Source: Chiloscyllium plagiosum
Taxonomy: Eukaryota
Assembly: GCF_004010195.1 (NCBI RefSeq)
Contig: NC_057752.1
Coordinates: 11,874,191 to 11,906,591 of the forward strand
DNA: 32,401 bases
Reading direction: 5' to 3'
Below the pieces are notes generated by a model. The model was not told the DNA's origin. It saw only the letters and a list, made by a program, of their open reading frames with translations, and made no database searches. Within the stretch, counting starts at the first letter, position 1. The number at the start of each line of letters is the position of its first letter. This document shows positions 2,881-27,179 of the stretch, in pieces. The position numbers were made by a program, and so were the translations under genes.

Positions 2881-2952
2881 AGCTTTTGAACCTGGAAAAG
2901 AAGTTAGCAGAATACAAGTGTGATACCAACAAGGCTATTCGGCTAAAGTTAG
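2881..2952 (+). CDS. HAT1: HAT1-family histone acetyltransferase, exon 2 equivalent (72 nt): xLLNLEKKLAEYKCDTNKAIRLKL(V)
   Basis: ttttctgtag| acceptor and |gtatgt donor; EKKLAEYKC-TN-AI-LKLV is the HAT1 N-terminal signature; phase 1 at both ends. Confidence 0.93.
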
Positions 2953-3335
2953 GTATGTGCTTCAAGCACAGAATCTTTTTATGACTTGCACACTGCTCCC
3001 CTTTATACATCAGACAGCGAAGGAGAAATGGGGGTGGAGGGGTTGGTGTGGAGATGGGCGAGAAAGGAAGTCATGTTGTGGCCAATTGGTTACTGAAGTT
3101 GGTGGAAATGTTGCAGTGATGTTGCAAAATAGCTTATTACATTCAGCGATGAACCAGTGTATAATCCTCCTCTTTGGGGGTAGAACATTACTTTTCTGAA
3201 ATAACTCCTAGGGGAGTATGATTTCTCTACTTATTGAGCTGTTAATGTAACTATTGGGTGCTAACGAAATTGGTTCTGCTGTTTCTTTCTCTGAAATCAG
3301 AGAGTCAGCATGATGTGTTTTTTCCATATTACTAG

Positions 3336-3411
3336 TTCGCTTCGTTGAAGACCTGGAAGATGAGACCATGAGCTTCAGTCCATTATACAGTCACCAAGTG
3401 TTTGGAGATGA
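3336..3411 (+). CDS. HAT1: HAT1-family exon 3 (76 nt): (V)RFVEDLEDETMSFSPLYSHQVFGD(E)
   Basis: actag| acceptor and |gtatgt donor; frame continuous with exon 2; P-Y-HQ-FGD motif. Confidence 0.95.
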
Positions 3412-3589
3412 GTATGTGATTTGTTACATTGGAACTTGTTGATAGGGCTGTCATTACCTATGCAATATGTTGCAAGCTTTCATAATTGCTTTTGGTTTTT
3501 GTTTTCATGCTGTGTTCTTGAATTGGCTGTTTTTGGTTACCATGTGCTCTCGTCTGGTTCTGGTCTGCCTGATTTAGCATAGCATCAGT

Positions 3590-3967
3590 TATGGCTCAAT
3601 CAGTAGCACTTATTCTTCATGAGTTAAAAGGTACATAGTTAAATATAAAGACCTAAGCATACAATCCGGGCTGATATCCCCAGAGCAGTATTGGCGGCAT
3701 GCTACATTGCATGTATAAGATACCCCATCTATAATTGTTTATATAAAATATTCCATGGCACTGCTTCAAGGAAAAGTATTGGTGTTCACACTAATATTCT
3801 AGTAAATATTTATCCCTCAGCCCAAGATTTGACTCATTACTTTTAGTGGGATCTTGTGAGAATGAATTTGCTACAATGTTGACTTCAAAAGTACTTAAGT
3901 GGCTGTAAAATGTATTAGGAAGTCCTGAGGACATGAAAGATGTAATATAAACACAGGTCTTTCTTTA
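3590..3967 (+). mobile_element. Deu-domain SINE (SacSINE1-like), degraded
   Basis: tRNA-like head GGCTCAATCAGTAGCAC, central CCATGGCACT...AATATTTATCCCTCA, tail CTTCAAAAGTACTT...GGCTGTAAA...TCTTTCTTT; related copies at 7.8, 8.9, 16.5 and 27.3 kb. Confidence 0.65.
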
Positions 3968-3994
3968 GCATTTTTGTCTGCCATGCTTGTGACT

Positions 3995-4718
3995 TAGAGT
4001 CATAGAAATGTGCAGCACAGAAACAGACCTTTCGGTCCAACTTGTCCATGCCGACCAGATATCTCAACCCAATCTAGTCCCACTTGTCAGCACTACCTCA
4101 TATCCCTCCAAACCTTTCCTGTTCGTATACCCATCCAGATGCCTTTTAAATGTTGCAATTGTACTGGCCCCTACCACTTCCTCTAGCAGCTCATTCCATA
4201 TACACACCACCCTCTCCGTGAAAAGTTTGCCCCTTTGGTTCCTTATATATCTTTCTCCTCTCACCCTAAATCTATGCCCTCTAGTTCTGGACTCCCCCAC
4301 CCCAGGGAAATGACTTTGTCTATTTATCCTATACATGCCCCTCATTATTTTATAAACCTCCATAAGGTCACCCCTCAGCCTCTGACGTTCCAGGGAAAAC
4401 AGCCCCAGCCTATTCAACCTCTCCCTATAACTCAAATCCTCCAACCCTGGCAACATCCTTATAAATCTTTTCTGAACCCTTTTATGTTTCACAACATCCT
4501 TCCAATAGGAGGGAGACCAGAATTGCATGCAATATTCCAACAGTGGCCTAACCAATGTCCTGTACAAATGCAACATGACCTCCCAACTCCAATTCTCAAT
4601 ACTCTGACCAATAAAGGAAACCCTCCACCACCACCCTCTGTCTTCTATCTTCGAGCCAGTTCTGTATCCAAATGGCTAGTTCTCCCTGTATTCCATGAGA
4701 TCTAACCTTGCCAACCAG
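3995..4718 (-). mobile_element. CR1/HER1 LINE 3' portion with open ORF2 C-terminus (4064-4576) and internal deletion
   Basis: LYRTLVRPLLEYCMQFWSP...LGLFSLERQRLRGDLMEVYKIMRG...TRGHRF...WNEL is the CR1 ORF2 C-terminus; short-repeat tail near 3995-4010; jumps to upstream RT sequence at ~4620. Confidence 0.92.
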
Positions 4719-5132
4719 TTTTAACCATAATTTTGATTAGTGCAGTTAGCACTGGATCTGTTTCTCTCCAAGGCTCACAGTTGAGAACAAACTAATGTAC
4801 ATTTTTAGTTCTTTTTTCATAAACCAGAAAGGTGGTTTGCTTGCTGGAATTCAACATCTCTGGACAGGTAGAGCGAGAGGATACATAGAACATGCTGGAT
4901 GTCGTAGGAAATCTATTCAGAGGTTGAAATACCAAGAATTCCCTGCAACTGTATTCACGTCTGACTAAAACTACATCTGTCCATGAAACCCACTTCAATC
5001 ATTTGTGAAGGTTTCACACGCCTCATTTTATCAAGTGAACAGTGTTGCTCTTGTTTAGAATGCAGTTATAGATTGCTATTCCAAGAGGTTTGCATACCAA
5101 GTATTTATTTAATTGTTTACTTTCCTGCCTTA

Positions 5133-5645
5133 ACTGCAGTATTGCCCAATTTTGGGCTCCGCACTAGCAAGAATGGGAAGATTTTCGAAGAGATGAAACG
5201 TAGATTTATGAGAATAGTTCCAGAGTTCAGGAATTTTAATTATCTCGATAGATTGGAGAGGCTGGGACTGTTCTCCTTGGAGAAGAGAAGGCTGAGAGGA
5301 AATTTGATAACGATGCTGAAAATCATGAGGCACCTGGACATTGGTGGAACAATCACAAACCAGAGGGCCCAGATTTAAGGTAGTTAGCAAAAGAAACAAT
5401 AGCAACATGACATCGAGATCTAGCATGTGCTGCCTATGTGTGTGGTGGAGGCAGTTTCAATCAAGGTTTTTCAAAAAGAATTGGGTATTTGTCTGAAGTG
5501 AAAAAATTTTGCAGGGCTACGGGGAAAATGTCAGGGGCGGGGTGGGATCAGCTGAGTTGCTGTCGCAGAGAATGGTTACAGACATGATTGGCTGAATAGC
5601 TGTCTTCTGTGCTGTAACCATTCTCTGATATTTGATCCTTCTGAT
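5133..5645 (+). mobile_element. CR1 LINE 3' fragment
   Basis: RRFMRIVPEFRNFNYLDRLERLGLFSLEKRRLRGNLITMLKIMR, then 3' UTR ending CTGTGCTGTAACCATTCT. Confidence 0.88.
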
Positions 5646-5654
5646 TTGAGTTCC

Positions 5655-6550
5655 ACATCATCATTAAGTCTGCCTATTTTCTATCTTGGTGACATTACCT
5701 GATATTTGACTCTGTTTGAGCTCATCTGCTAAAAGCCTCATTCATGCCTTTGTTACTTCTAGATTAGGCTATTCTAACACACTCCTGGCTGGTCATCCAC
5801 ATTCTAACCTCTGTAAACTTGAAGCCCTTTCTTGACTTGCACTAAGTCCCATTCCCCATCACCTCTCTGCTCGCTGACCCATGTTGGCTTCCTTTCAATC
5901 AGTGTCTTAATTTAAAAATTCTCAGCGAGCTTTGAGAAGATTTGTAGCTCAAGTTGAGGTTCTGGATGTAGATTTGCTTGCTGAGCTGGGAGATTCATTT
6001 CCCGATATTTGAGTAACATCTTCATTGGGCCTCGGGAGAAACAGTGTGCGTGGTTCCTGCTTTCTATTTATGTGTTTGGGTTGGTGATGTCATTTCCTGT
6101 TTTTCTCAGTGGGTAGTAGATGGAGTCTAACTCAATGTGTTTGTTCTTAGAGTTGTAGGAATTCTCGTGTGTCTGTTTGGCATCTCATCCTTGTTTCCAA
6201 ATTTCTCTATGGCCTCGCCCTTCCATATATCTCTCATCTCCTAAACATAGCACTTAATATCTGTGCTCACCTAGTTCTGGCCTCTTGAGCACCCGAAGTG
6301 ATTTTAGTTGTTTCACCACTTGAGAGTGTGCTTTCAGTAGCCCTAACCTGCTGAAATCTCTTTCTCTACTCCGTGTCTCTCTACATCTATCCATTCAGAC
6401 ACACCTTAGAACTGACCTCTTTGACCAAACCTTTGTTTCTCAGCCCTAATATCTCTCATTTCTCTAGCTGTCATTTCATCTTATTTTGTCTCTGAAGTGC
6501 CTTGAGATGTTGATATTTTAAACATGTTAGTTAAGTATCTATTGTTGCTT
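5655..6550 (+). mobile_element. L2-clade LINE 3' fragment, interrupted by a PLE at 5925-6182
   Basis: Remnant LIHAFVTSRLGYSNTLLAG, PITSLLADP-WLP, FKIL|ILVSKFLYGLA; similar to the copy at 13.5-14.4 kb. Confidence 0.75.
5925..6182 (-). mobile_element. Penelope-like element 3' remnant (GIY-YIG C-terminal region plus terminal repeat)
   Basis: Minus strand reads ...REFL...NKHIELDSIYYPLRK, followed by a decayed hammerhead-like core; TCTCA duplicated at 5920-5924 and 6183-6187. Confidence 0.7.
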
Positions 6551-7759
6551 TATCCCACTCCTAGAAGTATGATACACCTGTTCCCAGGTACCTTATTGTA
6601 AGGTATTTGTAAATGATGAAATTATACACCAGAAAGGCCTTGTAATCCTTTCCCCCTCTATCCTGGAATGGTTTGATAAATGGCTTCAGGGTTTCTGCCT
6701 CCCCAGGTGTATGTTCCATGTGTTGATCACTCTGTGTAAGAATTTTCTAATAGTAATAAAATCATCTTACTTTAGAGAGACTCTGTCATTCTTTTGTCTG
6801 AATTTCAATTTAATATGATGTAATATTACAGACACATTCTTTCCTTAATCACCTTATGTTCTTTATGTGGTCATCTCCTGAGTCTGTGGTTGTTCCCTTT
6901 TATTTTGAATCTGAGCAACAAACTAGCCTCTCTTCCATCTACTGAAACCTCCCAATGTCCATTGATGTGCTCTTGATGAATATCAGTACCACACACAGGT
7001 CTCCTCCTTAGTGTCTTAGCACTTTAACAGAAGCACAGTCTGTCCAGGGGATTTACTTGTTTTGAAGTTTTTAGCTTTCCTGCATACCAAAATCATTCAT
7101 TGTTTCTTGGATTTGCCGAGCATTGCTCTTACTGCTAAAATGTAATCTGTCTCTGTGTCCCTTTCTAATTTTATGCTGCTCATCTAATTTACCTGGTCTC
7201 AGGTGGAACTTTGTACCCTTGTGAGAGCCTAGGACTGTGGTGCTGACTAATTGCATTGAGCTATCTTTGTTTAAAATGCTCTTGGCTCTTATTGGAGACT
7301 GACACTTTTGTGATTTTGAAATTGGATGATGTTTTCGAACTTCATGTCCACCCCAAATTTCCAAAAAGATCCTGGAGCAATCCTGGTGTCTTTTGATCAA
7401 AACCAAGTTGGTTGAATGGATGTTTCTTCTGTCCTTTCATATCCTAGTAGTTGACTCTGTTTGTTTTAAACCCTGCCTCCATATCATCTTGTTTTCACTG
7501 CAAAGCAGTCCTATTCTCTCAACTCTGTGTGAAAACATTTCTTCTGACATCCCCCTTCTTCCACTGGTAATCCTCAGTCTGTGCTTCCTCTGTCACCTAT
7601 TCACTAACTCATGGAAACAATGTTGCATTTGCATTCCCCTCCAAAGAAGTCTTTGTCTTTTACCCCTGGTGTGATTGTAGGAAATTGTTACTGTCCCTTT
7701 TCCATATTTTGATGTTTTCTATAATGGGCTGCTGAGGACAGTACACAGTACTTTGTGTT

Positions 7760-7970
7760 AAATGTGGGCAAAATATTGGCCAGAATACCGAAATAGCTCA
7801 CTACTCTTTGTCATATCGTGCCACTGATGTTTGTTATTCATCTGAGCTAGCAATGTAGGCTGTTCAGTTCAATGTTTGCAAAATGGTATTCCTTTAGTAA
7901 TGTGTTCAGGTGACAGCCGAGATTATGGGCTTCAACCCATAGCCTGATGAAGGTACTATCAACTGAGTCA
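7760..7970 (-). mobile_element. Deu-domain SINE, 5' half, degraded
   Basis: Reverse-complement similarity to the 3.6 and 16.5 kb copies (AATATTGGCCAG, GTGCCA, AACTGAGTCA head). Confidence 0.5.
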
Positions 7971-8499
7971 AGATGGAACATTCCTCCAAGATCCTATCTT
8001 TTCTGAAGGGAACAGAGCCCACGGTTTCCAGTTCTTCCTCATTGCACAATCTATTTGACAGTCAGCCAGCCCCATGGAACTTCACTACATTGTGTACGGC
8101 ACTTTGCAATCAAGGTGTGGTCTGACCAGTGCATTGTACTTATAATTATGTCTTTGATTGATTTGCACTCAACTATATGATACACGTGTAGAATACAAGC
8201 TCTTTGAGAGATCACTTAGAGTATACAGCCCAAGAACAAGCCATTCGACTCATTCAGAGGAATGGGGTGTGATGCCAGAGTTTATGTGACACATTTAACA
8301 CTGGAACTCCTTGCAATACTGCCTACAGGTGTATCAGATATTGCAGGTAAATGCATTCATTTTTACAGGAGAGCATTCTATTCAAAGAGATGGGTTTGAA
8401 TGTTTTCAGTGGAATACTTTATATTAAATTTAATATGCAATAGATATAAATGGTTTGACAATCTTTTGATTTTTGAAGTTTCGTATCACTTCGTTTAGA

Positions 8500-8595
8500 T
8501 AATTTCTCTCAACAGGGCGATTAGAAAATATCACACACCTCTGGAATAGGTAGGACTTGAGCCCAGACCTCCTGGCTTGGAGGAGGTCTGGGCTC
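8500..8595 (-). mobile_element. tRNA-derived SINE fragment carrying a 15-bp inverted duplication
   Basis: Minus strand GGGCTCAAGTCCTACCTATTCCAGAGGTGTGTG is B-box-like; related sequence at ~28230-28310. Confidence 0.5.
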
Positions 8596-8839
8596 CTTTC
8601 CTTCATTTTGTACCATGTAAATGTGGTGATATCAACTAATTGCTGAGTAAACCTTGCTGTTTTGTTGCATTATTTAAAGAGCTTATTAGTAAGCCCCATG
8701 TTAGCAGAAGTTCTTCCAGTGCAAGCAGTTCTCTCATACAGCTCGTTTACGCTGAGGCTTAGCAGCATTTGCGCAAAAGTTTTCTACAAAGCAGCGAGCG
8801 CGACTCTTCCATTTGCCAAGAAATATCAGCGCAGTAAGA

Positions 8840-9000
8840 ACAGGTGATCCCATTATTACAACATTGCTGTCTATGGGATCTTGCAGTGCGCAAATTGGCT
8901 GCCGTGTTTCCTGTGGAACAATTGTGACTATGCCTAAGAAGTATTTCATTGGCTGGAAAGCACTTTGAGGTGTCCTGCAATTACAGGCAAGTGTATAAGT
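8840..9000 (+). mobile_element. Deu-domain SINE 3' portion
   Basis: GGGATCTTGCAGTGCGCAAATTGGCTGCCGTGTTTCCT...CATTGGCTGGAAAGCACTTTG matches 16690-16800. Confidence 0.7.
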
Positions 9001-9211
9001 TATTTGGAAGGGCTGCTCAGTTGATAGCAGTGTTTCCACTGAGGCAGCTCTAATATAAATGAGGCATCAGACATGCCCACTGTGTTACTAAACATCAAGT
9101 AAATGTGCTCATTTGAGTTTATAAATGGCCCTGCATTAAAAGTAAAGAGAAAATAAGTCTAACTTCTACAAATACTCTATCAACATGTGGTTATTTCTGC
9201 TTTGCCTGCAG

Positions 9212-9332
9212 AGAATCAGTATTTGGCTACAAGGACCTTGAAATCCAATTGTACTACAGTACCTGCAGCCTCACTACATTCTTCAATATCAAATACTCCA
9301 GCAAAGTTGTAGAAAAATATGACAACGTAGAG
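9212..9332 (+). CDS. HAT1: HAT1-family exon 4 (121 nt): ESVFGYKDLEIQLYYSTCSLTTFFNIKYSSKVVEKYDNVE
   Basis: tttgcctgcag| acceptor and |gtaggc donor; FGYK-L-I-LYY motif; phase fits exons 3 and 5. Confidence 0.95.
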
Positions 9333-10359
9333 GTAGGCTATTGAAATGTTGCTTGACTTCACAAGGTTTTAACTAGCCTAAGCAGTGCTCTGATTATGCA
9401 CTGTGTCATAGTACTGCAGTCTGTTCAGACCAGTGAGGTTCTGCAATGCACTATTCACTGGTTGCATCTGGTTTGTGGTTGCTTTATAGGTAACCTTGGT
9501 GCCCCTGAGTTAGGGAGTTGTAAATTTCACAAGGTTTTTGGTCTTGATCAATCCCAGATGTGAATGTCCCATTTGATTAAGATAAACCTTTCTTTTCTCC
9601 TCACCTCTCCCTTGGTTATGTGACCCACTGGTTCTCTGTTTGAGCTCCTACATAGGAGCTGTCAACCAGATGAGGTAGGGCTGCTGATGCCTGTGCAACA
9701 GCAAAAATCTTTCAAGGGAGCAGAAGTTGACTTCACTGCTTTGACCTCAAGAGGTACCTGAAATGACATCTTGCAAGCTTGGAGTATTAGGACCGACAGC
9801 CTTCCATTCTGTAATTGTGGGCTTGAGTCAAACACCTGGCAGTCATTTCATCCAAAGGAAGGATGATGAAATAATGATGCACCGCATTTAAAAAAAACTT
9901 TAGAAAAGCCATTTCATTGATGATGTTACTTAAACTAAGTGTTATTTTGTAAGTTTGTTTATAGCACAATGAGGAATTTGCTTTGCAGTCATTTAATAAA
10001 TCCTGTAAGGCCTTTCCTGGTGAAAACGGGGAAATAATGTGTTTTCTAGCTAAATATTTTCACAAATTGACAGGTTAGAGTACCTCCTCTGAGGTGTTGC
10101 TGTTCATGCCATGTATTGATTTAAAAAAAAAACAGGGAAATGACAGCATTGCCAAGCAGAATTATAGAGACAGACAGCTGTCTGGGGATCTGCTTCTCAG
10201 CTGCCATAAAATTGCTTCTGTCTTTTGACCTGTGGAATCCATAAGAGATTGCACAATGTGGCAAGAAAAGAATATGAGAGGGAGGGAACAGAAAAAAGAA
10301 ACTGCTTCCAATGTGCTTAAAGCTCTATAGTTTACTGTAAACAATTTGTTCCTATCTAG

Positions 10360-10539
10360 GTTGATAATGTTGAAAGTAAAATGTTAGAATTTATCCCAGC
10401 TGGTTACTGCATCAACCTTGATGAGTTTATTGTGCAGCTGGAAAAGGACGCTTCCTTCAGACCATTTGGATTTCTCATTCACTCGTATACCGTGTATGAT
10501 GAGAAGGAGGGACTGGAGTTAAACTATGAGATTTACAAG
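10360..10539 (+). CDS. HAT1: HAT1-family exon 5 (180 nt): VDNVESKMLEFIPAGYCINLDEFIVQLEKDASFRPFGFLIHSYTVYDEKEGLELNYEIYK
   Basis: cctatctag| acceptor and |gtgagt donor; LEK--F-PFG-L-H-Y motif; overlaps ORF 10381-10584. Confidence 0.95.
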
Positions 10540-10986
10540 GTGAGTGAAAAAAAAAACACACTGGTGTGCTTTTCTAATGGCTAATAAGCCTGAATATTTT
10601 CTTGGCTGTTTGGATGCGTCATTTGGTACAGATATTTGTCATTGACAACTCTTCACTGAAGATTCATGCTGGCTTTCACTGTCTGCTAGCTTTTACTGAG
10701 GCAGTGATTTGATTATCTGATTCTGCTGTGCACCTCTAGTGGCGTTTTTTTTGTCAGAGTCTAATTAATGGATTTCTACAATATTTGTATAGTTAGAGTT
10801 GGCTCCAGTGCTGCCACAGATCTGGTACAATTTAAATCAGTGATTTCACCTTTACTGCATTCATGACATAGCAACTGAAATCTGTCGATTAACTAAAATA
10901 TCCAATGGATTAATAACTGCTTTTTTTTTCACCGTAGTTCTCTTGTGAATTGTCCAAAGGAATGCTAAATCAAAGTGATACTTGGT

Positions 10987-11640
10987 CAGAGAGTCATACA
11001 GCACGAAAACAGACCCTTGGTCCAACCAGTCCGTGCTGACCATAATCCCAAACTCAACTCCTCTTGCCTGCTGCGCTTGGCCTGTAGTCCCTCCAAACAT
11101 TTCTTATTCATGTACTTCTCTAAATGTCTTTAAAACATTGTCACTGTACCTGCATCCACCACTTCCCGTAGAAATTCATTCCATATACAAACCACTCTCT
11201 GTAAAAGAAGTTTGCCCCGGTGTCTTTTTAAAATCTTTTTCCTGTCATCTTAAAAATACGCCTCCTAGTCATGAAATCCCACACCCAAGGGAAAATTACC
11301 TGCCATTCACCTTAACTCCACCCTTCATGATTTCATAAACCTCTGTGTCAGTCACCCCTCGACCTCCTCCACTCCAGTGAAAGAGGTTCCAGCCTCTCCC
11401 TACAGCTCAAACACTCCATTCCTGGCAACATTCCAGTAAATTTCTTGTGAAACCTTCCTATAACAGGAAGACCAGAACTGTGCACACTACTCCAGAAGAG
11501 GCCTCATCAATATCCTGTACAACTTCAATACGTTGTCCCAACTCCTACACTCAAAGATTTGAGTGTGAAGGCAAGCATGCTAAATGCTTTCTTAACCGTC
11601 CTTTCTACCTGTGATGGACATTTCAAAGAATCATTTACCT
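10987..11640 (-). mobile_element. CR1/HER1 LINE 3' fragment
   Basis: Co-linear with the 3995-4620 and 21080-21660 copies (AGACCAGAACTGTGCACACTACTCCAGAAGAGGCCTCA). Confidence 0.88.
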
Positions 11641-12779
11641 CTTCTCAAAGAACAGTGGCCTAAACTCTCCTTTTGTTAAATCCTTCCCAAGTGATGCCCT
11701 AATCCCATGGACTGGCACCATTCAGGCGATTTGCAAATATACATTTTAAAACTCAGATCATCTGACTGAGAGCATGGGGGAGGGATTAGCTGAAAAAGAT
11801 GCCCTTTATCTGATGTAATCAGGGATCTAGGAGAGAAATTAATCTCTCTAATTAGGTCAGATCAGATTTGGTTTACTTGTGAACAGATCTAGGGAGTGCA
11901 TTATCTAGGGAGTGCAACCCACAACCATCAAGATACCTCTTCCAGCCATTAAAGACAGAGTTAGATCAGAGCTCCAGGATAGTTTTCTGATACAGTTTAA
12001 TTCCACTATAGTTTTAAGTGGCATTTCAATGTATCTAAATCAGTACCTGAACTTTGCTTAAAAACAGTAAAATTATTCCTTAATAACAAGTTGCAAAGCC
12101 TATTTAATATTACATTTCTTGTACAGCTGAGCAATGAATAACTGAGTTTTGAATATATCCAAGTGATTTCAGTTGATCTATTTAACCAGTTCCTCGTGTT
12201 CACCATTGATGCTTTTGTCCTCAGTATAATCTTTACTTTCTCCCACCCTGGCAATTTGCCCAGGTATAGCCCCATTTTCATTCCCTCAAAGTTAGGGAAT
12301 GGAACTACATACGCCATAACTGGTATGGTGATCTATCACCGAACACTACCCTGAGGAGCTCCTGCAGAGAGGTCCTGGAGGTGAAATGATTGACCTCCAA
12401 CAATCACAACCATCTTCTTTTGTGCTCGGACTCCAATCAGCAGAGACCTTCTTCTCTCTTCCCCCCACCGATTCCTACTGACTCTAGTTTTGCTCGGGCT
12501 GTTGTCTGCCAAACTCTTGCCAAATGTCCCCTTAATATTGAAGGCTGTCCCCCTCGCCTCAACTCTGCAGTTCATATCTTTTGACCACATTTAGACCAAA
12601 GCCATAATGAGGCCAGGAGCTGAGTCTCACTGGCAGAAACCAAATTGAGAGTCAGGAAGCGGGTTATTGCTGAATAAGTGTCCCTTGATAGAACTGTTGA
12701 TGACACCACCCATCTTTTGATTAATGGGAGTAGACATGTCCTGAACCTGTAAAAATATGACCTTGCTTCTTTCTGCTCT

Positions 12780-12943
12780 AAATGCCATATTTAGGCATTT
12801 ATACAGACACATGAACAGACAGAAAACAGAGATACAGACCATGTGCAGGCAGATGGGATTAGTTTGGAATGGCATCATGGTTGGCACAGAAATGGTGGGC
12901 CGAAGGGCCTGTTTGTGTGCTGTATTATTCTCTTCTGTTCTAT
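12780..12943 (+). mobile_element. CR1 LINE extreme 3' end
   Basis: FRHLYRHMNR, then GGTGGGCCGAAGGGCCTGTTTGTGTGCTGTA tail. Confidence 0.75.
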
Positions 12944-13121
12944 CCACACCAAACTATGGGACTTTTGGAAATGTTTGGAAACCAAAATTTCTTTTCTGGC
13001 CTCGGTGGTAACAGATAATGTTAACACTTCTCTCTTCTCAGGGACTGTACTCTTCCACTTCATAATTGTTGTTGTATTCACCTCCACCCCAACCCACAAC
13101 CACCAAAATAAAAATCAACAA

Positions 13122-13310: not shown

Positions 13311-13449
13311 GTTATAAGGAGCGATTCTACCTCAAGCCTCCCCTGCTTCACCAGAATCCTGAACTTGTTGCCGACCCCATGTATCAGATCCCCCTGCCCG
13401 CCCCAAATAAATTAAGAATCTGTCCTGCTACAGGATGGCTCTGATCATA

Positions 13450-16840: not shown

Positions 16841-16849
16841 GTAAATGAA

Positions 16850-17040
16850 AGCTGCCATAGTCTCTGAGGACCATAGGCTGCTCTCTCATTTGACAGAGAC
16901 AGCTGGTGCTGAGTTTAACCTGAGGGTCACCATGCCTCAAGCAAGGGGCCAGGTTCAGAAAGCAGGGTGATCTCAGCCAGTACAGAAATTGAACCCACAC
17001 TGTTAGTGTCACTCTGCAGTCCACACCAGCTGTCCAAGTG
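16850..17040 (-). mobile_element. tRNA-derived SINE (family not named with confidence)
   Basis: Minus strand has B-box-like GGGTTCAATTTC followed by GGCTGAG...GGTGACCCTCAGGTTAAAC. Confidence 0.55.
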
Positions 17041-17667
17041 AAAAAAAACTGCTGCTTGGCTAATCTGAGAGAGTTGCTCTATCCCTATCAACTTTGGCAG
17101 TAGAACCCCTGATGTTCGTGAGGTGGGTGGGGAGAGGGGGCGATGCTTTGGAAGGTTCATTCTGAATGTGTGCACTCAAAATAACTGAATCTAAAAAAGA
17201 GTAACTTGCAGGCACATGGTGTATGTGCTTTTATTTTCACCTTTCCAACGGCTGAGTAGGTCACTTCAGAACAGGTCAGACAAGTGCAGGACTGGGATTA
17301 CAACATACTAGACTCTGTAAAGGCAAAAGGTTACCTTTCTTCTAGGGCATTAGTCCACACAATAATGTGACCGCTTTGTCACTTGCTGGTACCAGCTTTG
17401 GAAAAAAAAGACAGTTGTAATTCTCAAACTGCCATTGTTGGAGTTGAACTAAAGTTCTTGGGATTATTAGTACTGTAATTAGTATCCAAGTGATTCTCAA
17501 ATTCTTTTTGTTGAAGAGCCCCTTTTCAAGTGACTTAGTAATCATGAGCATCTCTATTCAAATATTAATACTGTAAACTCTATGCTTGTGTTCATCAGTA
17601 TTCTGTTAAAAGGATTTGCATGAAGTTTTCTGGGGTTGACTGATACAATGAGTATTCATGTGATTCT

Positions 17668-17977
17668 GTTTATTTGTTCATGGGATATTGGTGTTATTGC
17701 CTATCTCTAATGGTCTTGGAGAAGGTGAGTAAGTTGCCTTGAACTACTGATGTGAGGGAGGGAATTCCAAGATTTTGACTCAGTGACAGTGAAAGAATGA
17801 CTGCATATTCCCAAGTCAGAATGGTGAGTGGCTTGAAGAACTGGTAGGTTGTGATGTTGCCATGTGTCTGCTATCCTTGTCCTTCTAAATGGCAGAGGTC
17901 ACAGGTTTGAAAGGTGCTGTTGGAAGAGCCTTGTTAAGATACTGCTGTGCATCTTTGTTGGTACACAGTGCTGCCAT
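17668..17977 (-). mobile_element. 3' end of the same LINE family as 26120-26810
   Basis: Co-linear similarity with 26120-26350 (GAGGTCACAGGTTTGAAAGG...CCTTG...GCTG-GCAT...CACAGTGCTGCC). Confidence 0.55.
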
Positions 17978-18004
17978 GAAGAGAGTGAATCATTTGAGGG
18001 TGGT

Positions 18005-18215
18005 CAAACTGTCGAGTTCTCTACCACAGGAGGCTGTGGAACCAAATCATTGAATGTACTTAGGAAAGAAGTAGATGTCTACAGACTAAAGGTGTCAAGG
18101 AGTATGCGGAGAGAGTGGGAGTATGGCAAAGAGCTTTAGCTATGTTTGTGTTGGAATAGCGGAAGTATGCTTTGTGGGCTGAATGGTCACTTGGTTCTAT
18201 TTTCTGTTTCTGTTT
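18005..18215 (+). mobile_element. CR1 LINE 3' end
   Basis: SLPQEAV-KSLNVLRKEVD...GVKEY remnant and GGGCTGAATGG tail with TTTCTG repeats. Confidence 0.65.
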
Positions 18216-18427
18216 CTGTGCTGATATTGTGCATTAAAGCCTTCTTTTCATCCTCCGAGGATAGTGGGGAAAAGCTGCCTCTCTCCGGTCATTTATCTTC
18301 ACCTTGTGGAGTCTGGAATTTGAGCTTCCTTCTTGCAGTTGTCTGTTTATAGTTAACCCTAAGCTCAAACTTATTTTTTATGTGCCATTGATGTCGCAAA
18401 ACTTTGATTTTGTACAAGCACATACAT

Positions 18428-18615
18428 AAAATACAACAAATGCTGGAAACATTGAGCAGGTCTGGCAGTACCTGTGGAGACAGAAATAGAGTTAAAGTTT
18501 TCTTCTGCTCCTACCCCCACCCCCTATGCACTTTCTGTGTCTCTATTTCACTGAAGCTTTTCTTTCATCCTACTATATACACCATTACAAAACTGGTTAC
18601 TCTTCACCTATCTTA
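18428..18615. mobile_element. Probable Penelope-like terminal-repeat remnant
   Basis: AAATGCTGGAAACATTGAGCAGGTCTGGCAGTACC resembles GTGCTGGAAAAGTACAGCAGGTCAGGCAGCATCC at 1574-1608. Confidence 0.5.
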
Positions 18616-19893
18616 GGACCAGTTTCGAATCATCATTTCTTTGGATTGGTCCTCATTTTAGCACCTTTATTTTAGCTCCAAGTGAAAGCACGTTTTCAGC
18701 TTCTTACAAGGGTACTGTCTCCACTCCTCAGTTTCTTTCTTTGCTTATGGTTTCCCACTGTACCCTCATGTGGTACCGTACTCGATGTTTGAAAGATTTC
18801 CTTGCAGCTTAATGCATTTGGCCTGTCCACTGTTTTTCAGTGATTTACATTATTCTAGAATTACATGGGAGATTATTCTGATTTTAAGGTCAATGTGAAG
18901 TCAGCTGTTTTCACACAATGTATCGGACTGTTAAAGTGTGTTCCAAAGCTTTTTATGACTTGTAGGGAAAACACTGTGCCCTATGTGGTGAATCACTTGC
19001 CTGGAAGGCCATAAGTCTATCTATGGTGCATGCTGAGCGTGTTGATCTGAGAACAGGTAGTGCCAATGCTCCTATGATGCATATAGTAAGACAAAGGAAT
19101 GGCATTCCAGGCAGCCTTCCCTCAAAAAGAAATGACCAGTTGGATTTAGTGCTGGAGAGTCTAACTTTCTGTACCAGCAGGCTCAAGTCAGTGCCACTGC
19201 CTTTCTAGGCAACCTGGTCCATGTTTTCACCTCCGTCTGTGTAAAGGAGTTCAACTTCCATCATCTAAGTTTCAGACTGTGCCTCTTATGCATGTCCATC
19301 TGCATAAACTGTATCCTCACAATGTCCTTTGTGATCTTGAATTCTCAGAATCTCTCCTCTCTCACATGAGCGTTCCCAGTTTCTGCAGCCTCTCTCCATA
19401 ACCCAGTGGTTTGTATCAGTTCAATTTTCTTGTTCTTCACTGTCCCCTTCTCAGCCTTGGTATCTTCCTCATGATATGAAGTCCAAAGCTGTAGTAGGTA
19501 CTGTCAGCTCTGTACAAAACAATCACTCCCTAAGGTTTGTGCTTGGTCTGCCTGGTTATAGACTCTGCACTCTCGACTGTTACTATACTTTGTACTGATG
19601 ACATTGAGCTCTTATCCACCAGTATCCCAGATCCCTCTTTCATATCCTATAGAATCAACTTTCATTGTCACTGTTTTCAAACATTTTCAATCTCAGGACT
19701 CCTCCACAAAGAGTAAACTGTGTTGTTTGCAAATTAAAAAGCTTCGTAATCTACCACAAACCTAAATGATCAGTCTCAGCATAAGTTTTTCATGGAAAAT
19801 CTCAGTATTTTAGGATATGTTGATTATTCAGTTTGGAGCATTTATTGGTTGAATTGTGTCGCAGTTCATTAGTGATAATTCTCTTTCATGCAG

Positions 19894-20015
19894 ACTGATA
19901 TTAGCTGTCCAGGATTTCGAGAATACCACGAGAGACTGCAGACCTTCCTCATCTGGTTCATTGAAACAGCAAGCTTCATTGATGTCGATGATGATAAATG
20001 GCAATTCTTCCTGGT
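19894..20015 (+). CDS. HAT1: HAT1-family exon 6 (122 nt): TDISCPGFREYHERLQTFLIWFIETASFIDVDDDKWQFFL(V)
   Basis: ctttcatgcag| acceptor and |gtaagt donor; HERLQ-F--WFIE-ASFID-DD--W is diagnostic for HAT1. Confidence 0.97.
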
Positions 20016-20348
20016 GTAAGTGTATATTAGATGCATTGCCTGGACCATTTGTAACAGAGCTTGTATTACCTACTGTCTATATCTAAAGTTATAATGTGAA
20101 TGATATGCTTAGTTACAGCCAGGGGCATCCTGGTGACTTGAGGCATTTGTTGGTGAAGCAAATATGAGGTGCAATATAACATCCAACTGCCACCAATTGT
20201 AATCTATTACACTTCTACAGAGAGCATGGTGATTATAGACTGTCACTGTACTGAGAGAAATTACAGATTCAGTTGGATCTTCAGTTGGATGGGAGGAATC
20301 GAGAAGTAATTATAATTTTCAATTCTTTATCATTTTTGTGTTATGCAG

Positions 20349-20453
20349 ATTTGAGAAATATCTTGAAGATGGCTCGCCACGCTTTGCAACAGTGGGATAT
20401 ATGACTGTATACAATTTCTATGCATATCCTGACAAAATGAGACCACGAATAGG
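20349..20453 (+). CDS. HAT1: HAT1-family exon 7 (105 nt): FEKYLEDGSPRFATVGYMTVYNFYAYPDKMRPRI(G)
   Basis: ttatgcag| acceptor and |gtaggt donor; GYMTVYN-Y-YP---RPR motif. Confidence 0.96.
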
Positions 20454-20529
20454 GTAGGTAACCAGCAAAATCACAAACCGAAACGTTCCAGTCCAAAATG
20501 AATGCTGTCCAACTGCAAATTGCAATGAG

Positions 20530-21066
20530 AAATTGTAGGATTGTTAGAGTATGGGAGGAGGCCATATGGCCCATCTGCACCAGTTCTCCGAATAAGCTGT
20601 TCATCTAGTGTGATTCTTAGTGGGCATCTCCTTGTAACCTTACACATTCCCCTTTTTGGATAATATTTCAGTTCCATCAGACATAGGAACAAAAGTAGGC
20701 CGTGCAGCCCATTGAGTTCAGTGATTTAATGAGGTCATGGTTCATGTGATGATCCTCTACTCCCTGTGGCCTTAGACTCTCCCACAGGGGGATGCAACCT
20801 TTCCGCATTTACCCTGTCAAGTCCCTGAAAAATCTTGCATGTTTCAAAAAGGTCTTCCCTCATTCTCAAACTCCAATGAGTACAGGTCCAATCTCCTCGA
20901 GCTCTCCTCATAAGATAGTCCTTCCATTCCTGTTATCAGCCTTGTGAACCTTCTCTGGACTGCCTCAAATACCAGTCTATGCCAGATAGAAAATTTGTCA
21001 GATGTTATTTTTCCTTCGTGAAACCATGCTGACTCTGCTTGATCATATTATACATTTCCAAATGCT
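20530..21066 (-). mobile_element. CR1 3' fragments; the piece ending at 21066 continues at 24017-24310
   Basis: CR1 tails at ~20530 and ~20680, ORF2 remnants, and GAAACCATGCTGACT (reverse of SQHGF). Confidence 0.7.
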
Positions 21067-21074
21067 GTGTCATC

Positions 21075-23300
21075 CTGGGTCATTATCCCTCCACATCTTT
21101 CCTATTTATGCACTTATCCAAATGTCTCTTAAACAGGGTAGTTGTACCCACATCCACCACTTCCCCAGGAGGTTCATTCCACACGTGAACTACCCTCTGT
21201 GAAAAATTTACCCCTCATGTCTTTCCTAAATCTCTTTCCTCTCACCATAAAAATGCACCCCTTAGTCTTAAAATCCCCCATCCTAGGGAAAAGACAACTA
21301 ACATTAGCTTCATCTATACTCATTATTTTATAAACTTCTATCAGGTTGTCTCTCAACTTCCTACGCTCCAGTGAAAAAAGTCCCAGTCTATCCTGCTTTT
21401 ATAACTCAAAGCTTCCATACCTGGCAATATCTTTGTCAATCTCATCTGAACCCTCTCCAGTTTAATAATATCCTTCCTATAACTGGGTGACCAGAACTGG
21501 ACACAGTATTCCAGAAGAGGCCTCACCAATGTCCTGTACAACCTCAACATGACTTCCCAACTCCTATGCTCAAAGGACTGAGCAATGACGGCAAGTGTGC
21601 AAACGCCGCCTTAACCACCCTGTCTACTCGTGATGCAAGCTTCAAAGAATTATTTACCTGAACCCCTGGGTTATTTGTTTGTTGTACCAAAATCCAATAT
21701 CTCTCATTTTTCAGCCCATTGACCCATTTGATCAAGTTCCCTTTGTACTCTTAAAAAAACTGTCTTCGCTGTCTGGTATGCCACTAATTTTGGTGTCATC
21801 CACAAACTTACTAACCATGCCTTCTGTATTCACATCCAAGTCATTTATATAAAATGACAAACAAAAGAGGTCCCAGAACTGATCCCTGTGGAACACTGCT
21901 GGTGACAGGCCTGCAGTTCGAAAAACAACCCCCCTCCAAAATGCCATCTCCTGCCGTTAAGCCAATTATGTATCCAGTTGGCAAGCTCACCCTGCACCCT
22001 GTGTGACCTAACCTTACTAATTAGTTCACAATGCAGAATCCTCTCAAAGGCTTTACTAAAGTCCAAGTAAACAGTGACTACTGCTCTGCCCACACCATCC
22101 AAACCTTTAAGACAATGGTAGCCCCAGTCAATGTTTAGAAAATTAAAATCCCACATTATCACAACCTTCTTATGCTAGCATATTTCTGAGATCTCCCCAA
22201 CATATTTGTTTCTCAATTTCCGTCTGACTATTGGGGGCCTACAGTACAATCCCGTCAAGGTGATATTTTTTCCTTTCTTATTTCGAAATTCTACCCATAT
22301 GTTTTGGCTGAATGATTTTTCAGACATTTCTTCTTTAGTTACAGCAAAGTATTCTTTAATCAAAAGTGCCACTCCCATTCCTTGCCTCCTTTCCTATAGC
22401 ATTTGAAACCCAGCACAGTCCTGTCCAAATCTCAGCCAAGTAATAGCGATGATGTCCCAATCCCATTTTCCTAAACATGCCCTGAGTTCATCAGCCTTAT
22501 CTGTAAGACCTCTCGTATTGAAATAAGTGCAATTTGGTTCTTCAGAGTTACTATGTGCACTGATCCTCTGTGCTAAGATATTGGTCCCCTTCCAGTCAGG
22601 TTAAACCCATCGTTTTTGAACAGATCTTGTCTATCCCAAAAGACATTCCAATTGTCCAAAAACCTGAGTGCCTGAACAATACACTTTTTTATCCTTTATT
22701 TCCTTTTATCCTTTTGTTCCTTCCTTCATTTGAGGTTCGCATTTGGAGTAAACCTACGATTACTACTTTTAATGTTCTATTTTTTAAAATCTTCTACCTA
22801 ACCTCTTAAATTCACTCTGTAAAGCTTTAATCTTTCCCATAAAACATCATCCCTAGCAAAGTGGGCAATAACTTCTGGCTTCTCAATCTCACCTTTAACA
22901 ATATGCTTGAAATACTTAAAGGCATCCTTAATCCTAGCACTGAAGCCACTCTAAATTTACACTCTGTCACGATCTCCTGTCTATGCGTCTGACAGGAGAG
23001 TACCCTATAATAATAATTCCATTAAATTTTGTCAAATGCTCCTTACGTGAATCATTCCTCATGTCCAATAACTGCCCCTTCTATTTTCCTCAGAGCTACT
23101 ATCCACTTCAATATTCCCAAAGACTGAATATCTATTTGATAGAGAAATAGCCAGCAGAAACTTTTGAACTATCCTCTTATCTTTTCTGATGGTCACCCAT
23201 CTATCTGACTGACCCAGTTGTGTTATCATTTCTCTAAATCTACGAGCAATCTCGCTCTATACTACTTATATGCTCTTAATAATATTAAGCCTAAGAAAAA
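21075..23300 (-). mobile_element. Near full-span but internally deleted CR1/HER1 LINE (endonuclease, RT, C-terminus, upstream ORF1/5' remnants)
   Basis: GVALLIKE...IWVEFRNKKG...LYCRPP; MWDFNFLNIDW; VYLDFSKAFE; YINDLD...SKFVDDTKI; LYRTLVRPLLEYCVQFWSP; many frameshifts; 5' boundary uncertain. Confidence 0.88.
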
Positions 23301-24016
23301 CCTTCAATAACACCTTTGTAGAATAAACTACTTTTCATTACCAACAGAGTGTAATGATAAAATGCAAGAAAAACACAAATCTTAAATAAAATCAACCACT
23401 TAGCTGATTAATTAAACTAAAATGACTCCACTTCAATAAATTTCTCAAAAGAAAGAAATTTTCTCCCAAACCAACCACACGTAAGACTCGCCAAAACGAA
23501 AGCAGTCATGAAAACAATAAGCAGTGCTTAAAAAAAAAATGCTCTTGCAATGTTTTAAAACAAAAACTCCCTTTAAAATGTGTATAATTTTTTTAACCTT
23601 TAATTTAGAATGGAAAAAAAAATTCAGCTGTTCGCTGAAGGCCTTCGAAAAGCTCTTTTTTAAAAAAAGTTCAATTAAAAGCAAAATCACAAATTCTTGC
23701 AATGTAAAAAAAAACCCTTTAATGCATGTAGTCTTTTTTAAACTTTTAAATTTAGGACAAAAAGAAACTTCCATTCATTGTAGGCCCATAAAGAGTTTGT
23801 GAGTTTGTTTTAAAAAAAAAAAGTCTGTTTGGAGAGAAGAAAAAGTGCATTTTTTTGTTTGGTTTTTTTTCAAACGTCAGTGAAACAAAATGAATAGAAA
23901 TCTTATTAGTAAACTATAATAACAATAATAAATCTTCTAAGCCTGCAATCCCAGGAGCAGTTGCAAGATCCATGCTGCGCCCAGCTTATGTCTTGTATGT
24001 AATGTATACTGCCATT

Positions 24017-24310
24017 ATGCTATTACATCCTTTATAATAGACTTCAACATTTTCCTAATAACACAGATGTTAAGCTAACTGGCCCATTGTTACCTTTTCA
24101 TTTGTCTCCATCCTCTTTTTAAATAAGGGTGTTACATTAGCAGTTTTCCAAACTTGGGGGACTTTTTACAGAATCTAAGGATTCTTGGAAGATTACTACC
24201 AATGTGTTCACTTCCTTTAATATCCTAGGGTGCATCCCATCAGGTATAGGGGACTTATCAACCTTTAACCTCATTAGTTTCGTGCTAACTTTTTTTCTCT
24301 AGTGATAGTT
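24017..24310 (-). mobile_element. CR1 ORF2 pre-RT fragment (continuation of 20680-21066)
   Basis: CAGATGTTAAGCTAACTGGCC (reverse of -PVSLTSV); TGCATCCCATCAGG (reverse of PDGMH). Confidence 0.75.
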
Positions 24311-24544
24311 ATTCTCAAATGAAAGTACCTCCTCCACTCTTGAGCAGCATGTTCTGCAGTTAATTAATTGGTGCCTGAGGTAAAAAAAAATCCCAAAACT
24401 ACAACAGTAAATCTCATTTGAGTCAGATGGCAGTGTGCTAATGCCACTTACAATGGATTAAGTTCCTTTACAACTATTTATATATGTTTATTGAAAAAAT
24501 ATCCTGTGATCCTGCTCAGTGTAAAAGTTTGTCTAAAACGGCTG

Positions 24545-24925
24545 AGCCTAAGGATGAAGTATTGGCATGAGTGAATAAGAGCTTGGTAGAAAGGCTAGGT
24601 TTTGAAGACAGCAAAGTGGAGATGCAGAATGGATTTGTGAGGGAATTCTAGGATGTAGTGTTTATTTAACTGAAGATCTGGCTGTCGTTCAGTGGGATGG
24701 AGATGCACAGGGAGGTGGAGAGTTTGAGGCAGCAGGACAGGACAGTTCCATAGGAGGTCACAGAGGGAGCAGGCAGTGCTCCCTTTGGAGGAAGAGGATG
24801 TTTGAGGCAATGTCAAAGGCTGTAGAGAAGTAAAGATGGAAAATGAGCAATGTTATTTACAGCAGAAAAGATGCATATGGACTTGACAGAAACACTTTGA
24901 AGAACTTTGGAGAGGTAAGAGAGGC
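24545..24925 (-). mobile_element. Old L2-like fragment
   Basis: Purine-rich sequence reverse-complementary in character to the L2 3' regions at 6.2-6.5 and 14.1-14.4 kb. Confidence 0.4.
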
Positions 24926-24927
24926 TA

Positions 24928-25160
24928 AACAGGCTTGGTGGTTAGCACTGTTGCCTCACGGCACTAGAGATCCAGGTTCAATTCCAGTCTTGGGTGACCA
25001 TCTGTGTGGAGTTTGCACATTCTCCCCATGTCTACATGGGTTTCTTCCCAGTGCTCTCAATTCCTCCCATAGTCCATAGATGTGCAGGCTAGGTGGGTTA
25101 GCTATGGGGAATATGGGCTTACAGTTAGAACATAACCTTGGTCTGGGTGTGATGCCCTTC
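24928..25160 (+). mobile_element. HE1-type V-SINE, older and 3'-truncated
   Basis: GTGGTTAGCACTGTTGCCTCAC...GGTTCAATTCC...TGTGTGGAGTTTGCACATTCTCCCC, as in 29435-29754. Confidence 0.88.
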
Positions 25161-25732
25161 CGCATCTCCTCCACTTGCTGCTCCTCTGACCTTGAGACTC
25201 ACCCCTCCAATGGAAAGGGAACAGCATCCCCCTGGTCCTCACCTTCCACCCCACCAATCTCTACATACATCACATCATCTTCCACCACCTGCAAACAGAC
25301 ATGCAGGTCATGGGCCTCCTCCATCGCCTAACCCTTACCATGCCTGGAGGAAAAATGCCTCATTCCAGCTTGGGAGCCTGCAACCACAGGGGATGAAAGT
25401 GGATTTCACCAGTTTCTTCATTTCCCCCCCCCCCGCCCCTCCCATCCCAGTCCCAAGCCTCCAACTTGGCACCACTCTCATAGCTGTCTGACTCCCTTTC
25501 TCTTTCTGTTCCTTTCCTTTCCTCCCGCACCTTCATTTACCTATCATATTCCCAGCTACGTCCCCCAACTCCCCTCCCATTTATCTCTCAGCCCACAAGC
25601 CTCATTCCTGATGAAGGACTTACGCCCGAAGTGTTGACTCTCCTCCTTCTCAGATCCTGCCTGACCCGGTGTACTTTTCCAGCACCACACTCTCGACTCT
25701 GCTCTCCAGCATCTGCGGTCCTCACTTTCTCC
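25161..25732 (+). mobile_element. Penelope-like element 3' remnant (GIY-YIG endonuclease C-terminus plus terminal repeat)
   Basis: PLVLTFHPTNL and LEEKCLI/QLGSLQPQGMKVDFTSF remnants; terminal repeat with CTGATGA core ending CTCCAGCATCTGCGGTCCTCACTTTCTCC. Confidence 0.8.
25608..25638 (+). ncRNA. Degenerate hammerhead-ribozyme core within the PLE terminal repeat (probably inactive)
   Basis: CUGAUGA-A-GGAC-UUAC-GCCC-GAAG-UGUU: first conserved box intact, stem II has one mismatch, GAAA is GAAG. Confidence 0.6.
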
Positions 25733-25907
25733 GAAAGGAAAATGAATGCAAGATGGAATTACTGTGTGACAGGAAGGGGAGGAGACAGGTTTAAAATAGA
25801 AGGTTCAGGTCAAGTGGAGCAGCCAAAAGAGGCACTGACTGATAAAATTCTGTTTTTTGCATTTCGGTTGGTTTCTATTGATTTGAGTTTTTTTTTAATT
25901 TTCAAAG

Positions 25908-26014
25908 CCAAATGCTGGTGCTGCCCCCATTCCAAGGTGAAGGACATGGTGCACAGCTGTTGGAGACAGTCCAGAAGTTTTACACAAGGGACCCTGCTGT
26001 ACTGGACATTACTG
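25908..26014 (+). CDS. HAT1: HAT1-family exon 8 (107 nt): QMLVLPPFQGEGHGAQLLETVQKFYTRDPAVLDIT(A)
   Basis: T-tract + ttcaaag| acceptor and |gttagt donor; GNAT motif A Q-x-x-G-x-G (acetyl-CoA binding) intact. Confidence 0.97.
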
Positions 26015-26119
26015 GTTAGTGCCTTCATTGAAACCTGTTCAGCAGCCTTTTTTTTTTGAAAGCAAAATGAAGTGTACGGTGTTGAGGATATTCAAATTTA
26101 GACCACTTGAAAATATCAT

Positions 26120-26810
26120 GTTCAGAGGACTCCTTGCCCTTTTTCTTGCACAAAAAACATGTTAGCTGGAATTTCTAGCCTCACATAGCCATGGAGGCAT
26201 GGTATGAGGAAGTGGGTTTGAAGACTTGTTGTGAACCATCTGCTCTTGCTGATCAGCCTTTGTAAGCAGTGTTCTTGGCCAGAATCAGTTGCTGTAGTTT
26301 GTGCCAAGCCTTGGTGGGTTGCTGCAGTATATGGTTATACACTGCTGCTGCTCTACATTGGCAATGGATAGAGTAAATTATTAAGGTGGTGAATGTGTCA
26401 ATCAAGCGGGCTGCTTTGTCCTGGATGGTGTCAAGCTTCTTGAGTGTTATTGGAGCTGAACTCATCCAGGCAAGTGGGGAATATTCCATCACACTCCTGA
26501 TTTGTGTCTTGGACAGGCTTTAGGGAGTCAGGAGAGAAGTTACTCTGCGGGATTCCTAGCATCAGACCTACTGTTGTAGGCACAGCATTTATATAGCTCA
26601 TCTACTTCAGTTTCTGGTCAATAGTAACTCCCAGGATGTGGATAGTGGAGGATTCAGAGATGGCAATGTCATTGAAGGTCAAGGGGGGAATGCTTAGATT
26701 CTTTCTTGTTGGAGATCATTGCCTGGTATTTGTGTAGTACTGATGTCATTTGGCATTTATCAAGCTTCAAGGTTATTAAGGTTTTGCTGCATGTGGGCAT
26801 GGATTACCTC
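26120..26810 (-). mobile_element. 3' part of a CR1/Jockey-group LINE (probably the same family as 12340-16390)
   Basis: ORF 26253-26492 MEYSPLAWMSSAPITLKKLDTIQDKAARLI; upstream HILGVTIDQKLK remnant. Confidence 0.8.
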
Positions 26811-27027
26811 ATTGAATATTTTGGGAAACTGTACACTGCAATCATGATTTGCTAATGTAGCAGCAAGTATAGAGACATTCAGTTGTTTTAAACAACAAAT
26901 GGTACATAATCCTGGGCAAGGAATTCTGCAGTGGAATTTGTTGGGTTGAATGACCTATCATTTAAGCTTGCAGTAATTTCTGTTCAAAATCCTGCATTTT
27001 TTAAGGGCGTTTGTTTTGGAATTTCAG

Positions 27028-27179
27028 CTGAAGAGCCATCCGAGGATTTTGTGAAATTACGAGATTTTATTCTCGCCAAACTGTGCCAGGATCTCCAAGC
27101 CTTTGCACCTGAAAAACTCAAGAAAGGATTCAGTGCTGAAATGATAGAAGAGGCCCGACGAACCTGGAAGATAAATAAG
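27028..27179 (+). CDS. HAT1: HAT1-family exon 9 (152 nt): (A)EEPSEDFVKLRDFILAKLCQDLQAFAPEKLKKGFSAEMIEEARRTWKINK
   Basis: atttcag| acceptor and |gtaatg donor; E-PS--F-KLRD motif; lies within ORF 26931-27299. Confidence 0.96.

Follow-up and report, generated by a model that had tools for sequence, protein, structure and literature searches.

Hidden paralogy through the differential loss of ohnologues, the gene copies left by whole-genome duplication, has been described in jawed vertebrates for Nodal (PMC12344233), and 68 ohnologues are reported to have been kept differently by the cartilaginous and the bony lineages (PMC10115646). The histone acetyltransferase HAT1 has the appearance of an exemplary single-copy orthologue. 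In bony vertebrates its gene adjoins METAP1D and DLX1/2 (PMC2891724, PMC2685005), human and bony reference data include the structures PDB 2P0W, 6VO5 and 9MJG and the Pfam families PF10394 and PF21183, and roles have been assigned to individual residues of the enzyme (PMC4964394, PMC12899889). Here we describe eight exons of HAT1 in a 32,401-nt stretch of the genome of the shark Chiloscyllium plagiosum (NC_057752.1, positions 11,874,191 to 11,906,591 of the forward strand; hereafter the window). We propose that this gene probably arose as the counterpart of bony HAT1 in the jawed-vertebrate allotetraploidy (2R), that the two copies were then lost reciprocally, and that the survivor in cartilaginous fishes, their single functional type-B HAT1 and probably X-linked, is related to the bony gene by hidden paralogy.

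The process proposed is the same as for Nodal and for the 68 ohnologues. HAT1 would differ from these cases in that its loss looks fully reciprocal, leaving an apparent 1:1 housekeeping gene, and in that the shark copy would be X-linked. The protein itself is already annotated and hidden paralogy is well known as a process; HAT1 is a good new case and not a new kind of system. Literature on HAT1 in connection with cartilaginous paralogues, elasmobranchs or the shark X, mostly within open-access reach, held nothing on the HAT1 locus, although lists of X-conserved genes or of differentially retained ohnologues may name it. Likewise, "HAT1" is absent from the readable supplements of PMC10620051, PMC11406177, PMC12318234 and PMC10115646, which may not list genes by name.

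An intact HAT1 gene in the window

The eight exons measure 72, 76, 121, 180, 122, 105, 107 and 152 nt, and each is bounded by an AG acceptor and a GT donor. Once spliced, they form 935 nt with a single stop-free frame that encodes 311 residues, while the remaining two frames contain 16 and 30 stops; positions, sizes and reading frame are those of the initial annotation. The product is identical at 311 of 311 positions to residues 4–314 of a 407-residue HAT1 record from Chiloscyllium punctatum/plagiosum (XP_043537992.1, XP_072423083.1 and GCC20086.1; P0006 below), and it is this identical protein record that supports the spliced form. Human residue numbers are obtained by adding 11 to those of P0006, an offset that reproduces the published residues. 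The exons are as follows.

2881..2952, + strand: HAT1 coding exon, probably exon 2 of the gene, P0006 residues 4–26; AG/GT splice sites, open frame, tblastn matches to P0006 and to bird HAT1
3336..3411, + strand: HAT1 coding exon, Hat1_N domain, with residue 43 (human 54; Leu in chondrichthyans, Glu in other vertebrates) and residue 51 (human 62)
9212..9332, + strand: HAT1 coding exon, Hat1_N (E=1.6e-10), with conserved residue 53 (human E64, H4 recognition)
10360..10539, + strand: HAT1 coding exon of 60 residues, the most divergent, with 26–30 of 60 identical to bony HAT1
19894..20015, + strand: HAT1 coding exon with catalytic E187 (human numbering) and W199
20349..20453, + strand: HAT1 coding exon, the sixth in the window, 25 of 35 residues identical to bird and mammal; the codon at the next junction is the chondrichthyan Gly in place of Ser239
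25908..26014, + strand: HAT1 coding exon with the conserved acetyl-CoA-binding loop (QxxGxG) of the GNAT domain
27028..27179, + strand: HAT1 coding exon with catalytic E276, D277 replaced by Glu, P278 and the start of HAT1_C (E=1.2e-15); last exon of the window

Single exons are sufficient to match the Pfam Hat1_N, GNAT and HAT1_C models. The start exon, with about 7 coding nt as inferred from the offset, was not located in the window, the last 93 residues of P0006 (315–407) have no match there, and Rfam returned zero matches in it. The open frame, the seven introns lying inside the window and the 83–100% conservation across chondrichthyans rule out a pseudogene or retrocopy, and the gene is a maintained one, as had been supposed from its exons.

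RefSeq and GenBank records of other chondrichthyans represent the same gene, already annotated as HAT1. Over the 311 residues, the Stegostoma model (XP_048379257.1) is 98% and the Callorhinchus model (XP_042200221.1) 83% identical to the window product, and the records other than P0006 span 83–99%. The existing annotation is plain HAT1; the separation from METAP1D, the long branch and the probable ohnologue status described below are not conveyed by that name.

A single HAT1 type in cartilaginous fishes

Compared over its 311 residues, the window product is 83.0% identical to HAT1 of Callorhinchus, 66.2% to that of a bird, 64.3% to that of the coelacanth, 60.5% to mammalian HAT1 and 60.1% to that of a lamprey. 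The measured range of 60–66% agrees with the low identity to bony HAT1 of about 60–65% that had been estimated by hand. In the block encoded by the sixth exon, 10 of 35 residues are unlike both bird and mammal. This is the count given in the initial annotation, which had assigned the block to exon 7. Several of these shark states are common to lamprey and hagfish, and part of the difference therefore arose on the bony side. HAT1 of the cyclostomes Petromyzon, Lampetra, Eptatretus and Myxine is 60% identical to the window product, with which it shares P203, A218 and I227 (P0006 numbering).

The locus had been put forward as a second HAT1 in the shark, a proposal at odds with what we find in protein collections. 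A search with zebra-shark HAT1 yielded 689 matches, of which the best 120, reaching down to 486 bits, were examined. Among these 120, chondrichthyan HAT1 constitutes one type, divided over four clusters; all other rows are bony or cyclostome proteins at 53–65% identity, and none is a bony-type HAT1 from a chondrichthyan. The chondrichthyan type is carried by at least 16 named species (ten sharks, five batoids and Callorhinchus), at 83–100% identity to the window protein, the species names for the largest cluster being drawn from 15 of its 26 members. Eight matches at 58–62% identity carry no species label, and all eight fall in bony clades of a quick tree of 56 rows; four such matches were looked up, of which three share a cluster with named proteins of lungfish or teleosts and one is a singleton. 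Only one "-like" shark model came up, P0153 of the whale shark; it corresponds to the C-terminal half of the same gene, whose N-terminal half is on the same 12.2-Mb sequence. The window gene appears to be the only HAT1 of sharks, rays and chimaeras.

Separation of HAT1 from METAP1D

To place the gene relative to its usual neighbor, we compared the lengths of the sequences that carry HAT1 with those that carry METAP1D, using the METAP1D part of the bird model P0028 as query. This 654-residue model fuses HAT1 with METAP1D and is probably a read-through annotation of two neighboring genes. The comparison took in 10 of the 16 named chondrichthyan species, and the two genes lie on different sequences in all ten, although one HAT1 is on an unplaced 175-kb scaffold and is uninformative. 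The gene is thus not found between SLC25A12 and METAP1D, where the initial annotation would have expected an ordinary HAT1. The chondrichthyan sequences that carry HAT1 measure 8.7–73 Mb and those that carry METAP1D 76–289 Mb, with pairs of 20.1 versus 289.5, 19.6 versus 108.4 and 8.7 versus 91.0 Mb. Among bony vertebrates, HAT1 and METAP1D share one sequence in 9 of 15 comparisons, often with adjacent locus tags, and the species concerned include coelacanth, lungfish, caecilian, bichir, tailed frog and bowfin.

The two genes are on different sequences in the teleosts Osmerus, Knipowitschia, Brienomyrus and Arapaima, an arrangement that would fit a reciprocal loss following the duplication in teleosts, as has been noted for zebrafish metap1d (PMC2891724).

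METAP1D of sharks, recovered in 14 named species, is 85–89% identical to the bird query, like that of the coelacanth (88%), most teleosts being lower. This identity rules out a general fast evolution of sharks. An indirect test indicates that the intron positions of HAT1 are common to shark and other vertebrates: in 116 non-chondrichthyan models, 24 of 41 indel ends fall at most 2 residues from a window intron, where about 13% would be expected. Retroposition is therefore excluded, and a DNA-level move is not.

Depth of the split between shark and bony HAT1

Shark and bony HAT1 proteins are 56–63% identical, compared with 69–90% within bony vertebrates and 59–65% between lamprey and bony vertebrates. 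In matched 20-taxon trees of HAT1 and the single control gene METAP1D, in which five labels (bird, snake, shrew, wombat and tuna) stand for different species per gene, the branch that joins the chondrichthyan and bony crowns measures 0.77 for HAT1 versus 0.077 for METAP1D. The chimaera–elasmobranch distances are similar, at 0.25 for HAT1 and 0.23 for METAP1D, and the ratio of between-group to within-group distance is 3.4 for HAT1 versus 1.2 for METAP1D.

A careful tree of 29 rows with outgroups divides the HAT1 branch into a chondrichthyan stem of 0.48 and a bony stem of 0.16. Its outgroup sequences are remote, with long branches; those with a name come from an insect, a rotifer and a copepod, and no amphioxus or tunicate sequence was identified among them. 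The best tree makes the shark and bony clades sisters, with a support of 97/92, and leaves the cyclostomes outside; in this tree the split follows the departure of cyclostomes, as 2R requires. A shark copy branching outside gnathostome HAT1, as the initial annotation had predicted, is not what this tree recovers. A clade of shark and cyclostome HAT1 is rejected by the approximately unbiased (AU) test (p=0.023).

Chromosomal location suggested by sequence sizes

Published sizes of the elasmobranch X are 45.0–73.0 Mb for two myliobatiform X pairs and 16.4–28.8 Mb for other species (bioRxiv 2025.02.26.637739), with further values of 28.4 Mb (PMC11406177) and 46 Mb (10.64898/2026.05.02.722412); the whale-shark X is reported to be incomplete (PMC10620051), and the devil-ray X1 is described as a fusion of the ancestral X with an autosome (bioRxiv 2025.02.26.637739). 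The sequences that carry HAT1 in Mobula hypostoma (73,079,903 bp) and Pristis pectinata (16,413,646 bp) match the published extremes of 73.0 and 16.4 Mb. Those of Stegostoma (19.6 Mb), Scyliorhinus canicula (20.1 Mb) and Hemiscyllium (23.6 Mb) fall inside the published range of 16.4–28.8 Mb, and that of Callorhinchus (5.3 Mb) is near the size of a 6.1-Mb X-homologous scaffold reported in another chimaera (PMC12952989). These carrier sizes make a location of HAT1 on the X of sharks and rays probable.

Among the genes of the elasmobranch X are HOXC, DHH, ACVR1B, GLI1 and WNT1 (PMC12318234). HOXC, DHH and ACVR1B have been assigned to CLGB beta2, the 2R sister segment of alpha2, and METAP1D has been placed in CLGB alpha2 for gar, chicken, frog and bamboo shark, in the last of these on chr7 (PMC10972751 supplement).

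A proposed reciprocal loss of 2R copies and its alternatives

These observations would be accounted for by the following course of events. The allotetraploidy of jawed vertebrates would have left two HAT1 genes, one, alpha2, next to METAP1D–DLX1/2 on the chromosome with HOXD, and the other, beta2, on the small chromosome with HOXC. The two would have coexisted and diverged, with more change in the beta copy, in line with the faster evolution reported for beta segments (PMC10115646). Bony vertebrates would then have lost beta2, and cartilaginous fishes would have lost alpha2 before the chimaera–shark split. The beta2 chromosome would have become the elasmobranch X, so that X linkage of HAT1 is probable in sharks and rays. 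Of the earlier suggestion that an ohnologue was retained on a paralogous chromosome, this keeps the probable ohnologue and its place off the METAP1D chromosome, and it substitutes reciprocal loss for the retention of two copies.

Several points weigh against this account. The alpha and beta genomes separated about 508 million years ago and crown gnathostomes date to about 456 million years ago (PMC10972751). A lead of some 50 million years is too short for a tenfold branch, and an acceleration after the duplication must therefore be assumed; in addition, METAP1D is the only control gene. The HAT1 gene tree coincides with the species tree and the gene is single copy, so that the tree does not separate orthology from reciprocal loss, and the AU test does not reject (p=0.126) a clade of bony and cyclostome HAT1 with the shark outside, which would mark a deeper, first-round (1R) split. 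Among the listed proteins no species was found with both copies, and the duplication node is thus not seen directly; shark copies that are unannotated, partial (<223 residues), decayed or ranked beyond the best 120 of 689 matches could escape. HAT1 and METAP1D are on different sequences in 6 of the 15 bony comparisons as well, namely in four teleosts, in one eel (adjacent locus tags, merged records) and in one pair of short paddlefish scaffolds. The proposed X linkage relies on sequence sizes, and four elasmobranch carriers of chromosome-like length lie outside the published 16.4–28.8 Mb range, namely those of Heterodontus (37.8 Mb), Chiloscyllium (36.0 Mb, the longest of three records), Rhincodon (12.2 Mb) and Amblyraja (8.7 Mb); so does that of Rhinoraja (11.5 Mb), a genus that this range need not cover.

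Some of the same facts would suit a true orthologue of bony HAT1 that left the HOXD chromosome by a DNA-level translocation, introns included, in the stem of the chondrichthyans and then underwent an evolutionary burst. HAT1 is single copy everywhere, its tree is that of the species, the chondrichthyan stem is three times the bony one, the extra time since 2R is insufficient on its own for the branch length, and NCBI names the complete shark models HAT1 without the suffix "-like". We nevertheless regard such a translocation as unlikely. The bony HAT1 stem by itself is twice the whole METAP1D crown-to-crown branch, and bony HAT1 has fixed changes of its own, though it has not moved. Furthermore, chondrichthyan chromosomes are reported to be very stable (PMC11406177), and, should the match in size to the X hold, a chance relocation would have had to hit precisely the one small sister paralogon.

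A different origin for the shark gene, as an ohnologue from another CLGB paralogon (at the 1R level, on the HOXA/HOXB side) or one located on another microchromosome, and not X-linked, strikes us as decidedly improbable. The best tree unites the shark and bony copies, and two carriers agree in size to three figures with a published X, namely with the fused 73-Mb devil-ray X1 and the 16.4-Mb sawfish X. Set against this are the deeper clade left standing by the AU test, a shark–bony identity no higher than that between lamprey and bony vertebrates, and the several carriers whose sizes are outside the X range. That sharks keep the window gene alongside an ordinary HAT1 still beside METAP1D is very improbable, even though more ohnologues survive in chondrichthyans than in bony fishes (PMC10115646) and the evidence comes from the best 120 of 689 matches in protein collections. 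Full-length bony-type proteins score 490–590 bits and would be expected in a list that reaches 486 bits, yet no such chondrichthyan protein is among those 120. The ready recovery of shark METAP1D in 14 named species indicates that its region is annotated, and the one "-like" model, from the whale shark, belongs to the same gene on the same 12.2-Mb sequence.

If the shark and bony genes are reciprocally lost 2R copies, as we propose, trees and dates that treat HAT1 as 1:1 overstate the shark–bony distance about tenfold on that branch. HAT1 would also be a clean marker of the alpha2 and beta2 subgenomes, with the usually lost beta copy as the winner. In addition, a housekeeping chromatin enzyme would be added to the elasmobranch X, whose dosage compensation is incomplete (PMC12318234).

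Conserved domains and substitutions in the catalytic region

Shark HAT1 matches PF10394 (Hat1_N) with 165 bits and PF21183 with 85 bits and shows weak GNAT matches, so that the layout of Hat1_N, GNAT and HAT1_C is present. It aligns without gaps to the human structure 2P0W over 321 residues (E=1.2e-140), with the same domains. The catalytic acids of HAT1 are E187, E276 and D277 in human numbering (PMC4964394). Residues E64, E187, W199, Y225, E276 and P278, together with the QxxGxG loop, are retained in 14 of 14 chondrichthyan rows, a set that takes in the acetyl-CoA loop and residues of H4 binding. Since it is the only HAT1 there, the shark enzyme very likely does the standard job of acetylating new histone H4 at K5 and K12 from acetyl-CoA.

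The third catalytic acid differs. The position of D277 is Glu, which is still acidic, in all 14 chondrichthyan rows. All 22 bony and all 4 cyclostome rows have Asp there, and so do 11 of the 12 outgroup rows. Along with D277E, the substitutions E54L and S239G (P0006 residues 266, 43 and 228, respectively) are fixed in the 14 chondrichthyan rows at sites that do not vary among the 22 bony and 4 cyclostome rows and are largely preserved in the outgroup. Judged from the alignment, these three are candidates for an altered H4-binding or catalytic pocket. At the position of Y282, chondrichthyans have Phe, as do cyclostomes and 12 of 12 outgroup rows. HAT1 has 21 fixed differences between chondrichthyans and bony vertebrates in all; the cyclostomes side with bony vertebrates at 12 of these, with sharks at 6 and with neither at 3. 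Shark and bony HAT1 form a natural enzyme pair for probing the role of D277.

It is conceivable, although doubtful, that sharks and rays acetylate new H4 by means of the beta2 ohnologue that bony vertebrates lost, with clade-wide changes at or near the active site (D277E, S239G and E54L), and that this only HAT1 resides on the X, the oldest known among vertebrates, within its differentiated part. Given the incomplete dosage compensation there, expression of an essential chromatin-assembly enzyme would then be lower in males than in females, and the rate or substrate range of the enzyme may differ measurably from that of human HAT1.

Repeats in and around the gene

CT-rich tandem arrays occupy both ends of the window, at 1–512 and 31982–32401, with a 29-nt unit repeated 17.7 times and a unit of about 25 nt repeated 17.9 times. 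Two models divide the whale-shark HAT1 between them, and that of the sawfish is short, at 367 residues; taken together with the tandem arrays, this suggests that the HAT1 locus may be hard to assemble. The intron that follows the last exon seen contains a pair of 300-bp short interspersed elements (SINEs) at 29447–29748 and 30772–31073, which are 94.7% identical, inverted and about 1 kb apart, and which resemble a tRNA-derived shark SINE. Further upstream, the introns hold a decayed element resembling a long interspersed element (LINE) at 21845–22174 on the minus strand, with a weak reverse-transcriptase match (PF00078, E=5e-5), and LINE-related dispersed pieces, 71–76% identical, lie near 4013–4599, 10999–11640 and 21086–21659.

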